DNA of 64,000 nt from a virus, in IMG/VR virus record IMGVR_UViG_3300033153_010139, positions 55,267 through 119,266 of that record; one strand, given 5' to 3'. Both the position numbers and the translations under genes were made by a program. The notes below the pieces were generated by a model. It was not told where the DNA came from. It saw only the letters and a list, made by a program, of their open reading frames with translations, and searched no databases. Every line of letters starts with the position of its first letter. The stretch's first letter is position 1. Shown piece after piece: positions 42,286-43,703 of this stretch.

Positions 42286-42773
42286 CCGACGACACCATGT
42301 TTCCCGTCTACACCTTCCCGCTCAAGAACAACGAGCACCGCGTGATCGATGGCGATACAGTCGTCGTTGAAATCGACCGTGGCTGGGGCGACCGGAAGAA
42401 GACCGCACTGCGGCTTAACGGGCTCGACGCGCCCGAGTCGCGCACACGCAAGAACCTGCTGGAGCGCCAGGCCGGCAAACTCGTCACGAAGGTCGTGCTC
42501 AAGTGGTTCGAGGACCAGGGGAACCGCCAGCTCTACGCCAGCTCGGACACGCGCCCCAAGTACGCCGGCCGGACAGTCGGTCGCATCTGGGCCGGGGGCT
42601 ACGGCCAGTGCCTCAACACCTACCTGGTCGATCAGGGCCTCGTCGTCGAGTACCACGGCGGCAAGAAGGCCGCGTGGTCGCAGACGAAGCTCAAAGCGGT
42701 GATCCGCGCAGCGAACAAGATCCTGAACGACGATGCGGTGACCGAGCTGGGAGACCTGGCGCGCGATGACTGA
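42282..42773 (+). CDS. Thermonuclease (SNase-like) with C-terminal tag (DAVTELGDLA)
   Basis: RVIDGDTV, RLNGLDAPESR, KYAGR, LN..LV..GL...Y.GG. Confidence 0.85.
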   Translation: MTDDTMFPVYTFPLKNNEHRVIDGDTVVVEIDRGWGDRKKTALRLNGLDAPESRTRKNLLERQAGKLVTKVVLKWFEDQGNRQLYASSDTRPKYAGRTVGRIWAGGYGQCLNTYLVDQGLVVEYHGGKKAAWSQTKLKAVIRAANKILNDDAVTELGDLARDD

Positions 42774-43029
42774 TCCGTACAGCAAGTTCAAGTTCCGTGT
42801 TGCCGAGCCTTGGTCCGTCACCAGCGTCCCGCCGCCGGCATCGGTGGTTGAACGCCTGGCCGGGCTGGAGGACGCCAAGATTGCCGAGCGCAACCGTCAG
42901 TTGGACAAGGTGAACGCCGACCTGGAGGAGTGGCGCAAGAAGACCGGCGACGCGGACGAGTGGTGCGAGGTGGAGGTCAACGGCGTCAAGACGCGCGCTC
43001 GCATTCGCCTGGAGTACCGTGAAGAGTGA
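42766..43029 (+). CDS. Tagged protein with tail-tube-like N-terminal peptide
   Basis: DPYSKFKFRV + SVVERLAGLE. Confidence 0.55.
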   Translation: MTDPYSKFKFRVAEPWSVTSVPPPASVVERLAGLEDAKIAERNRQLDKVNADLEEWRKKTGDADEWCEVEVNGVKTRARIRLEYREE

Positions 43030-43268
43030 GCGCCGCGAGGAAGATAGCCAAGATCGCGAGCTTCGGCATGCTCTACGGGCAGAGCGCGCAGAGTCTCAAG
43101 AAGTTCGCGATGCCGGTATGGGAGCCGTCCGCGGTCGATCGCTTGGCCGCGCTGGCGGACCCGGAGATGGCGCGCAGGGTCGAGGAGTTCGACGAACCAG
43201 ACCTGAAGGCGAGAAGGCTGATCGCGCGCTGGGAGAAGGCTTTCCACACGAAGCAGCGCTTCCGGTGA
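43026..43268 (+). CDS. Tagged protein with DNA polymerase A motif-B-like peptide
   Basis: RKIAKIASFGMLYGQSAQSL + SAVDRLAALA. Confidence 0.65.
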   Translation: MSAARKIAKIASFGMLYGQSAQSLKKFAMPVWEPSAVDRLAALADPEMARRVEEFDEPDLKARRLIARWEKAFHTKQRFR

Positions 43269-43417
43269 CTGAGCCGCAGGACAAGTACGAGGAGTCCAAG
43301 AACCGCGAGCGCGTCGCCGGGATCATCGACTACGAGACCGGCGAGGTCAACCTGACGTGGACCAAGACGGACGACGCGACGACCGCGCTCGGCGATCTGG
43401 TGCGCAACGATGGCTAG
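43265..43417 (+). CDS. Tagged micro-protein with virion-like peptide
   Basis: GIIDYETGEVNLTW + DATTALGDLV. Confidence 0.55.
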   Translation: MTEPQDKYEESKNRERVAGIIDYETGEVNLTWTKTDDATTALGDLVRNDG

Positions 43418-43703
43418 GGCGGGCGTATTCCTGAACGGCCAGCTGATGCGCGAGGGCGAGGACTGCAAGGTCACGTGGGCGCGTGGCGCGGTGCAGGTCG
43501 AGTGGGCCGGGGTTCTGCCGGCGAAGGGCGATGAGATTTCCGTCCAGTACCTCGACCCCGAGCCTAGCGCGGTCGATCAGCTGGGAGAGGTCGCGCTCAC
43601 CCCGGAGGAGCGCAAGCGCCGCCAGCGGATGCGCAGCATGAACACGCTGTTCCGCCAACCTGTTGAGATCGGGATCTCGTCCAGGGGGACAAAGCCCAAG
43701 TGA
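43410..43703 (+). CDS. Tagged protein (tail-domain-like N-terminus, GISSRG C-terminus)
   Basis: VFLNGQLMREGED + SAVDQLGEVA + IGISSRG. Confidence 0.6.
   Translation: MARAGVFLNGQLMREGEDCKVTWARGAVQVEWAGVLPAKGDEISVQYLDPEPSAVDQLGEVALTPEERKRRQRMRSMNTLFRQPVEIGISSRGTKPK

Follow-up and report, generated by a model that had tools for sequence, protein, structure and literature searches.

What does a phage gain from a row of very short genes, each of which pairs a peptide resembling a stretch of a core phage protein with one and the same recurring motif? This question is raised by positions 42766-43703 of the 64,000-nucleotide stretch of viral DNA analysed here (the window), which corresponds to bases 55267-119266, i.e. 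the final 64 kb, of a single virus contig of 119,266 bp (IMG/VR record IMGVR_UViG_3300033153_010139, hereafter G000). A preliminary description of the locus had read it as a library of tagged copies of the most conserved segments of several core phage proteins, and our comparisons by blastp, shuffled sequences and family motifs bear this out, the set being both systematic and conserved. The four open reading frames (ORFs) at the locus are real genes and belong to a conserved family of mosaic mini-proteins that occurs in a lineage of T4-like jumbo phages. As judged from their sequences, the segments that flank the recurring motif (the tag) are derived from core proteins. The best reading of these genes, to which we assign a probability of about one half, is that they would display tethered mimic peptides on a portable docking helix.

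All four ORFs lie on the + strand and, with the predicted starts, overlap stop to start, i.e. they are translationally coupled. The four peptides singled out in the preliminary description were recovered in these overlapping ORFs where it had placed them, and all four are tagged:

42766..43029, + strand: ORF of 87 amino acids (aa) with a copy of the tail-tube N-terminus at aa 2-12 (nucleotides (nt) 42769-42801) and the tag variant P-A-S-V-V-E-R-L-A-G-L-E-D (core at nt 42841-42873)
43026..43268, + strand: ORF of 80 aa with a polymerase-A motif-B-like helix at aa 5-24 (nt 43038-43097), then the extended tag at aa 33-57 (nt 43122-43196)
43265..43417, + strand: ORF of 50 aa with a copy of a tail-sheath strand, AGIIDYETGEVNLTW (nt 43316-43360), then the short C-terminal tag TALGDLVRNDG (nt 43382-43414)
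43410..43703, + strand: ORF of 97 aa with a VFLNGQ...VQY segment (nt 43425-43550), the tag EPSAVDQLGEV (nt 43560-43595) and a copy of the protease Ser motif, EIGISSRG (nt 43665-43688)

Using the tag itself as the query, we obtained two relatives of G000, namely G006 (275,101 bp, with terminal repeats, rated complete) and G007 (159,664 bp). Both encode a T4-type major capsid protein (MCP; Gp23, E about 1e-55). G006 has in addition a portal of T4 type (E 4.9e-51) and an S77 prohead protease whose sequence continues into a scaffold-like tail. The Gp23 MCP, portal and S77 protease of the relatives identify the lineage, by homology, as T4-like jumbo phages. G000 has a GC content of 65% and a CheckV completeness of 43%. 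Sheath, tape measure, baseplate and two gp19-type tube proteins make up its contractile tail module, and it also encodes a beta sliding clamp, a DnaB-type helicase, two MoxR-type AAA+ proteins, a CobT-like VWA protein, DNA methylases, a Cpn10 co-chaperonin and a bona fide transfer-messenger RNA (tmRNA). The genes for MCP and for the DNA polymerase PolA are both missing from the contig. An HNH endonuclease gene opens G000, and its homologue in G006 sits directly downstream of the MCP gene; the head genes of G000 therefore lie beyond the contig end.

The first of the four ORFs had been likened to the N-terminus of gp19-type tail-tube proteins, and this likeness was upheld. The best match of its N-terminal 25 aa among 238 G006 frames is the N-terminus of the G006 tail tube, with a score that 0/60 shuffles reached, the difference being marginal (47 vs 46). 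The two gp19-type tube proteins of G000 itself (PF06841, E about 1e-15) begin ...STDPYLNMRFHLVD. The N-terminal DPY..F.F.V peptide of the tail tube is present in the ORF, 5/150 members of the metagenomic family described below carry it, and the pattern DP[YF]..[FY].[FW] is kept in the members P0038, P0049, P0122 and P0130. Pfam returned no family for 42766-43029 at E<=10, a domain-level match to gp19 (PF06841) included, and no parent was identified for the C-terminal part of this ORF.

The second ORF had been assigned motif B of family-A polymerases, with the remark that 80 aa cannot make a polymerase. Alignments point the same way. Pfam DNA_pol_A (PF00476) matches at profile positions 205-228 of 381 (E 0.022, 14.1 bits vs a cut-off of 34.3), so that the resemblance concerns the motif and not membership of the whole domain. 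Among 177,635 PDB sequences, 16/17 matches at E<=10 fall on motif B of Taq Pol I (best E 0.17), where 33 residues up to the tag are aligned with 16/33 in common, and the best pairwise alignment with G006 PolA likewise centres on motif B (9/22 identical, E 0.007). Shuffled versions of the peptide did not score clearly worse (p=0.15), and taken alone this resemblance is weak.

For the third ORF, a motif of tail or baseplate proteins had been proposed. It does come from a tail protein, namely the sheath, and not from the baseplate: residues 605-629 of G000's own sheath are matched with 46% identity over 28 aa (blastp E 0.009), the G006 sheath is matched at E 0.007, and the shuffle test gives p=0.049. 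The G006 orthologue of this ORF (26100-26369) matches the sheath as well. In the fourth ORF, IGISSRG corresponds to IGMSSRG of the G006 S77 protease, in agreement with the suggested protease serine motif, as an 8-residue copy only; a Peptidase_S77 domain with its His and Ser motifs is not present, and the VFLNGQ segment, also taken for protease-like, found no parent in the comparison with G006 frames. A G006 ORF (25490-25864) has the same layout, i.e. the tag followed by '...VGISSRGTG'. The tube, Ser-motif and VFLNGQ parts were judged by alignment scores. Persistence across the whole family, as documented below, lifts the weight of resemblances that would be weak if taken singly.

The core of the tag has the pattern S/D-A-V/I-D/E-R/Q-L-A/G-x-L and corresponds to an N-capped amphipathic helix. 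A regular expression (regex) for this core matches 26 times in G000, 73 times in G006 and 38 times in G007, compared with 0, 2 and 0 matches for the reversed pattern and 0-3 matches in each of 10 triplet shuffles of G000. The codons of the tag are free at synonymous sites, a codon alignment showing four Ser, four Ala, four Val and several Arg and Leu codons. Because synonymous positions vary so freely, the conserved object is the peptide, selected at the protein level, and a DNA-level repeat or recombination site is ruled out. The logo of 61 G006 tags reads S/D(-1) A V/I D/E/T R/Q L G/A x L/V/I V/A R, in which positions -1 and 2 covary (S..D/E or D..T) and position 5 is G or A. We read this covariation as a probable helix capping box, which is a textbook helix feature, and the hydrophobic positions 1, 4, 5 and 8 share one helix face. 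The AlphaFold2 (AF2) model of ORF 43026, built on a 150-row alignment, has helices at residues 3-17, 36-44, 46-56 and 58-74, with a predicted local distance difference test (pLDDT) score of 90-94 across residues 31-50; a Foldseek comparison of this model with the PDB gave 0 matches at E<=10. The tag occurs in two forms. The short one, usually L-G/A-D/E-L, lies <=20 residues from the stop codon in 43/73 G006 matches, and the remaining G006 matches are internal. The extended one, inside the small mosaic ORFs, is a helix-turn-helix of the form EPSAVDRLAALADPExAxRVxxW(D/E)E.

The four ORFs do not stand alone, and further mosaic genes with copies of other core segments lie next door, as follows:

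41309..42010, + strand: ORF of 233 aa that carries the tag twice and copies MCP at about 262-321 and about 248-270 (blastp E 8.7e-4 to G006 MCP; 0/60 shuffles)
44026..44376, + strand: ORF of 116 aa with a copy of the MCP N-terminus and a 'VQPM' segment, then the extended tag (blastp E 5.5e-9 to G006 MCP 75-125)
44878..45318, + strand: prohead-protease-like paralogue with the terminal tag RSAVDQMGDLVREDEGEDDA (phrog_207 E 5.4e-19; Pfam S77 E 4.9e-4)
45695..45910, + strand: tag, then ...RPEFYKTVTVENL, which copies the C-terminal end of MCP (blastp E 0.003 to MCP 428-477; 0/60 shuffles)
46250..46495, + strand: copy of MCP 425-443, GFYYKPFVPLQITANF, then the extended tag (blastp E 0.021; 0/60 shuffles)
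46492..46761, + strand: extended tag, then IDFVADEACPRAYP, which copies the C-terminal motif of the prohead protease (blastp E 3.5e-4 to G006 protease 502-527; 0/60 shuffles)

In the shuffle tests (20-60 shuffles per part, with parents ranked among 217-238 G006 frames), 0/60 shuffles reach the real score for 7 flank parts of G000 ORFs, or 8 if the protease-like paralogue is counted, whose top match is its own G006 orthologue. The lowest blastp E belongs to ORF 44026, which matches Pfam Gp23 at its positions 6-44 (E 0.0033), has orthologues in G006 and G007, and aligns to RB32 gp23 residues about 95-131, the most conserved stretch of gp23. When the ORF and its orthologues are aligned with RB32 gp23, the columns I111, V114-M117, P120, G122 and Y131 are invariant, and the N-termini are aligned too. 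The protease-like paralogue (44878-45318) reaches 20.1 bits against Pfam Peptidase_S77, which is below the cut-off of 27, and it has Pro in place of the His of the G006 protease DHPG and Thr-Leu in place of Ser-Ser of GMSSRG; we take this His and Ser to be the catalytic residues of the S77 protease.

The mosaic cluster is syntenic in the three phages (24.6-26.9 kb in G006 and 12.2-14.8 kb in G007), and a HExxH lipoprotein-like gene adjoins it in each of them. The G000 copy of this gene, at window 40250-40885 (+) directly upstream of the cluster, has a lipoprotein-like N-terminus and an HEQEH motif, and has no Pfam match. Between G006 and G007, the ratio of nonsynonymous to synonymous substitution rates (dN/dS) is 0.24-0.47 for the mosaic ORFs, compared with 0.13-0.19 for MCP, clamp and lipoprotein; the mosaic genes are under purifying selection. 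The 75-aa MCP-like block of ORF 44026 is about 70% identical (by eye) between G000 and G006, while the clamps of both are 50% identical. Mini-ORFs matching the phage's own MCP or portal are present in G006 and G007 (blastp E<=1e-3), and at the same threshold none was found in G002, a complete relative that lacks the tag. Beyond the main cluster, G006 has mini-ORFs that copy MCP 82-110 (152325-152699; E 6e-4) and portal 293-313 (103595-104035; 76% over 21 aa, E 1.8e-6).

Are the copies of self or of foreign origin? The preliminary description had suggested a comparison with the phage's own full-length genes, and this comparison pairs the pieces of capsid, sheath, tube and protease with proteins of the lineage itself. 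The MCP motif tracks the MCP of its home genome in G006, where the piece reads ...FYRPRY as in the G006 MCP; the G000 piece reads ...FYQPVY, the G000 MCP itself lying beyond the contig. The polymerase piece, for which the G000 contig offers no PolA of its own, was compared with Taq Pol I and G006 PolA and may be of either origin.

When 1.84 billion representatives were compared with a profile of the extended tag, 155 proteins matched at E<=1e-3; their length is 51-230 aa in nearly all cases, and the top 49 of the 155 were read by eye. Recurrent layouts include motif-B-like peptides (P0012, P0054), 'SVQPMT...FYRPRYG' pieces of MCP, C-terminal MCP pieces interrupted by the tag at a single fixed point (P0045, P0031), an MCP strand followed by the tag and the start of an MCP helix (P0032, P0043), 'FDFVADP' protease ends (P0015, P0024, P0028), sheath 'IDYxTG' (P0048, P0060) and tube N-termini (P0038, P0049). 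P0012 joins the motif-B type and the MCP type in one chain. Regexes for the motif-B-like, tube-like, sheath-like and protease-C-terminal motifs, all four composed after inspection of the data, match 5, 5, 4 and 9 of 150 members, respectively, and 0 of the reversed sequences. When scored against 217 G006 frames, 54/269 non-tag parts, in 48/147 members, beat all 20 shuffles by >3 score units; their parents are MCP (33), portal (9), protease (4), tube (3), sheath (2), PolA (1), DnaB (1) and other (1). The junctions are fixed within each subfamily, which points to some 10-15 old gene families and not to ongoing random sampling; seen in this way, the mosaic ORFs are old families with fixed junctions and not recent captures. 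Larger annotated carriers of the extended tag were sought with the 'longer' lengths, and the 17 matches are all of 80-172 aa, with 0 bearing a Pfam domain.

The short helix is found far more widely: about 60 further proteins per genome, ORFans for the most part, carry it in a loop or at the C-terminus. The annotated carriers in G000, together with one candidate reader of the tag, are:

26664..27599, + strand: N6/N4 DNA methyltransferase with the tag SVSAVDQLAQIAL at its extreme C-terminus (Pfam N6_N4_Mtase E 3.6e-27)
42282..42773, + strand: SNase-like nuclease with the C-terminal tag DDAVTELGDLARDD (Pfam SNase E 1.4e-4)
17026..17958, - strand: DUF6011 protein with the internal tag VSTIEKLAALAPVE (Pfam E 2.4e-9)
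51473..52588, + strand: beta sliding clamp of the phage, a predicted candidate for the tag reader (Pfam DNA_pol3_beta domains; phrog_947 E 2.4e-34)

Further carriers in G000 are a zeta-toxin-like kinase, the HNH endonuclease (tag near its N-terminus) and the protease-like paralogue. In G006 they include PolA, with two tags in loops of its exonuclease domain, a ResIII helicase, a DnaB_C paralogue and arrays of about 45 small tagged ORFs at 104-132 kb (- strand) and 135-170 kb (+ strand). In further relatives of these three phages the tag was not encountered: those reached via the protease-like protein (2 loci) or the sheath (6 loci) have none in the stretches examined, the DNA pattern AVD[RQ..]L[AG] occurs 0 times in the five whole records of more distant relatives (G001-G005), and G002 has 0 regex matches and no other recurring terminal peptide. 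The beta clamp is present in G006 and G007 and absent from G002, G005 and G001. Co-folding of the clamp dimer with a 59-aa tagged protein (45523-45699) gave a score of 0.00 vs a mark of 0.32, in a run without controls that counts neither way. Other candidate readers of the tag are a MoxR/CbbQ-type AAA+ ATPase and its CobT-like VWA neighbour (window 56536-57837 and 58313-60055, +) and a second AAA_5 ATPase (window 29679-30809, +).

How might such proteins work? Each mini-protein has two parts. The first copies 10-50 residues from a highly conserved segment of a core protein of its own lineage. In the four ORFs these segments are the N-terminus of the tail tube, motif B of the polymerase (its O-helix), a strand of the sheath and the Ser loop of the protease, and next door they are three MCP regions and the C-terminal strand of the protease. 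The second part is the module that all of them share, the N-capped amphipathic helix, which is extended to a helix-turn-helix in the mosaic ORFs; it would serve for docking, as a portable address that a single partner recognises. The copied segment would fill the site at which an assembly partner, a chaperone or a host sensor normally recognises the full-length protein, and the tag would hold the resulting complex at a hub. The leading candidate for this hub is the prohead scaffolding core, with loading in the manner of the T4 capsid targeting sequence (CTS).

Several points weigh against this tethered-mimic reading. No partner of the tag emerged, and we infer both the docking and the mimicry; isolated pieces of buried fold elements may bind nothing. 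Single resemblances to PolA and to the Ser motif are weak. PolA ranks top of 238 G006 frames for ORF 43026, yet does not beat the shuffles, P0002, a homologue that is 69% identical to this ORF, has no Pfam PolA match, and the Ser motif alone ranks second (p=0.69, not significant). In the metagenomic family, at least 3 of the 54 parts with a parent (P0072, P0102 and P0110) look like coiled-coil, low-complexity or unmasked-tag matches, 99/147 members, or about two thirds, have no recognisable parent, and the excess of head proteins may be partly an artefact, as detection favours slowly evolving parents. A destination in the prohead in particular is at odds with the position of the cluster and of the large arrays of tagged ORFans, which are surrounded by replication and accessory genes and lie outside the head module, with the tags on PolA and helicases, with a PHROG family match for just 3/50 tagged G006 proteins and with the lack of a canonical tag on portal, protease-scaffold or MCP.

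That the resemblances are due to chance is hardly credible. The preliminary description would have fallen had its matches been no better than those of random peptides, and this comparison divides the four: the tube and sheath pieces are above their shuffles (0/60 and p=0.049, respectively), the PolA piece and the Ser motif are not, and Pfam has nothing for 42766. But the top parents cluster in a few core proteins out of 217-238 frames and reversed controls give 0/150, so that for the whole set chance is effectively refuted by the blastp, shuffle, family and reversed-sequence controls. It is also very unlikely, in our assessment, that the mini-ORFs are evolutionary debris, by-products of recombination or deletion in tag-bearing genes of which the tag module alone matters. 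Several ORFs do have the layout 'segment A - tag - segment A-prime' of one parent site, e.g. MCP 248-270, tag and MCP 279-290 (P0032, P0043), as expected of truncated copies of a parent that once had the tag inserted, and PolA shows that tags are possible inside full-length genes. Debris would, however, hardly show dN/dS of 0.24-0.47 over whole ORFs, synteny across phages whose clamps are 50% identical, fixed junctions, or parent motifs kept in many of 150 diverged members. A tether to the replisome, with the helix as a lineage-specific clamp-binding or other hub motif that recruits enzymes to phage DNA, is unlikely as well. It would explain the tags on PolA (twice), ResIII helicase, DnaB_C paralogue, methylase, nucleases and HNH endonuclease and the location of the cluster in the replication region; moreover, a beta clamp occurs in all three tag-bearing phages and not in the complete, tagless G002, although G002 differs in many further genes. 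The tag itself fits poorly: R and Q occur in 39 vs 17 of 61 cases and there is no aromatic end, unlike the clamp-binding consensus QL[SD]LF, and the tag is predicted to be helical with a capping box, whereas clamp motifs bind in extended form. The capsid, portal and protease pieces and the protease paralogue have no obvious clamp role.

Two further accounts share features with the tethered-mimic reading. One, which we regard as possible but tentative, takes the helix for a head-loading signal, i.e. a capsid-targeting peptide that would bring about 60 proteins, mimics included, into the prohead core, from which they would be ejected when the next host is infected. Packaged enzymes are known, such as the methylase/helicase DarB of P1. 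Head genes of T4 type are present (Gp23 MCP, Portal_T4, S77 protease with scaffold tail), the presumably dead protease paralogue bears a terminal tag, 46/54 recognisable flanks come from MCP, portal and protease, and a tag-like VRDLIGDLS is found in the scaffold part of the G006 protease. In T-even phages, the internal proteins are described as a diverse defence set whose only common feature is the CTS, which is a precedent for diverse small proteins with a common targeting peptide (PMC3012670). It does not sit well with head loading that tagged genes lie outside the head module, that PolA bears two internal tags, that no head structural protein has a canonical tag, and that the tag is helical and C-terminal or internal, vs the N-terminal T4 CTS. 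The other account, which we consider doubtful, sees anti-defence decoys: the copies would bind host sensors or abortive-infection factors that read core proteins, and the tag would sequester or neutralise the sensor. The preliminary description had hinted in this direction. Fast evolution and many paralogues would suit decoys, and the parents overlap the targets reported for the Avs7-21 sensors, namely MCP, portal, tail tube, DNA polymerase and RecA-type helicase (bioRxiv 10.64898/2026.01.04.697583). The commonest piece aligns to RB32 gp23 about 95-131 and thereby probably falls within the same quarter of gp23 as the 29-residue Gol region. Gol is described as the part of gp23 that is conserved best and as the peptide that activates Lit (PMC3014915). 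The work on the Avs7-21 sensors also reports that sensors read extended, shape-complementary surfaces of folded monomers (bioRxiv 10.64898/2026.01.04.697583), which short pieces may not mimic, and a Gol-like peptide is expected to activate Lit and not to block it. More doubtful still is the combined version, in which a phage-encoded decoy library, perhaps packaged and injected via the address helix, would tether to a hub, which sequesters or disarms the sensor, copies of those segments of MCP, portal, protease, tail tube, sheath, polymerase and helicase that are read by bacterial pattern-recognition receptors and abortive-infection systems.

Comparison with known systems gives a similar picture. 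The T4 CTS is about 10 residues long, N-terminal and removed by gp21. The tag shares with it the principle of one short peptide on otherwise unrelated proteins of one phage. It differs in being a C-terminal or internal helix (43/73 G006 tags near the stop codon, the others internal) on about 60 proteins per genome, PolA included, and in having flanks that copy core proteins. For the CTS, as described for IPI-III and Alt, the carriers are likewise unrelated, fast-evolving small proteins with one short conserved peptide (PMC3012670). The tag may also be set beside other addressing peptides. Encapsulin cargo peptides and the C-terminal tether of the HK97 protease are short, mostly C-terminal, have a hydrophobic-G/A-x-L core, address cargo to an HK97-fold shell and bind in extended form; the tag resembles them in length, position and core, and differs in that it is predicted to be helical with a capping box. 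The beta-clamp-binding motifs (QL[SD]LF or QLxLxL) are similar in being short portable motifs that polymerases, helicases and DNA-modifying enzymes carry in loops or at their ends, and the phage owns a clamp; the tag logo does not follow their consensus, a helix is predicted, and pieces of virion proteins carry the tag here. SaPI1 CpmB is a satellite protein that copies the scaffold binding peptide of 80alpha and competes at its site; it is a single satellite case, as opposed to many segments of many core proteins, phage-encoded and with a common tag. Lit-Gol and Avs7-21 read the kinds of proteins copied here, and Gol is a short peptide of the conserved gp23 stretch, but these are host sensors and not phage genes, and the available text of the two sources describes no phage-encoded library of tagged copies (PMC3014915; bioRxiv 10.64898/2026.01.04.697583). 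Overall, the tag resembles docking and targeting peptides yet fails their testable defining features, namely position, consensus and conformation. The full-text literature, with supplementary gene lists outside the search, gave no description of the tag or of tagged self-fragment mini-proteins. To our knowledge mosaic self-copy families have no counterpart, and the family appears to be undescribed.

If the tethered-mimic reading is true, one portable helix would address about a sixth of the proteome to a single partner, and a conserved set of mini-proteins that display the best-conserved stretches of the phage's own capsid, portal, protease, tail and replication proteins would constitute a new class of phage genes, with assembly control, inter-phage competition and escape from sensors of the core proteome as candidate roles. 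The decoy-library version, if true, would give the phage a general means of countering hosts that sense the core phage proteome. The tethered-mimic reading bears on the open question of how a phage copes with immunity aimed at proteins that it cannot change, and it offers an experimental handle in the form of a 10-residue bait peptide and defined mimic peptides for known sensors.

Some other features of the contigs are worth recording. The T4-type late promoter TATAAATA occurs 0 times in G000 and 0 times in G006. The tmRNA is full-length (window 38386-38801, -; Rfam RF00023, 157.9 bits, E 2.5e-62) and was not found in the syntenic 20-kb pieces of G006 and G007. ARAGORN predicts for it an unusually long tag peptide of 30 residues; this peptide is unlike the address tag. 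The Cpn10/GroES-like co-chaperonin gene (window 39813-40292, -; Pfam E 1.5e-16) lies between the tmRNA and the mosaic cluster. G006 PolA (G006 40799-43639) has, by eye, a mini-intein-like insertion (C...HN|S) at the TGxLS/DPNLQN motif, and the G006 prohead protease (G006 191880-194744) has a LAGLIDADG intein directly after DHPG (Hom_end_hint, LAGLIDADG_3). Directly after the tail-tube gene of G000, a putative ORF (G000 19980-21125) has a GIY-YIG-like start by eye, 'YVYEL...FYVGKG'; with this ORF and the tagged HNH gene near MCP, copied core genes are putatively flanked by homing-endonuclease-like genes. Finally, several large tail-fibre-like ORFs (window 746-2722, 6273-6740 and 8432-9919, +) have near-identical C-terminal peptides, ...YHIKVEAHLDTGEILYVGRP..., and these ends are probably paralogous fibre tips.

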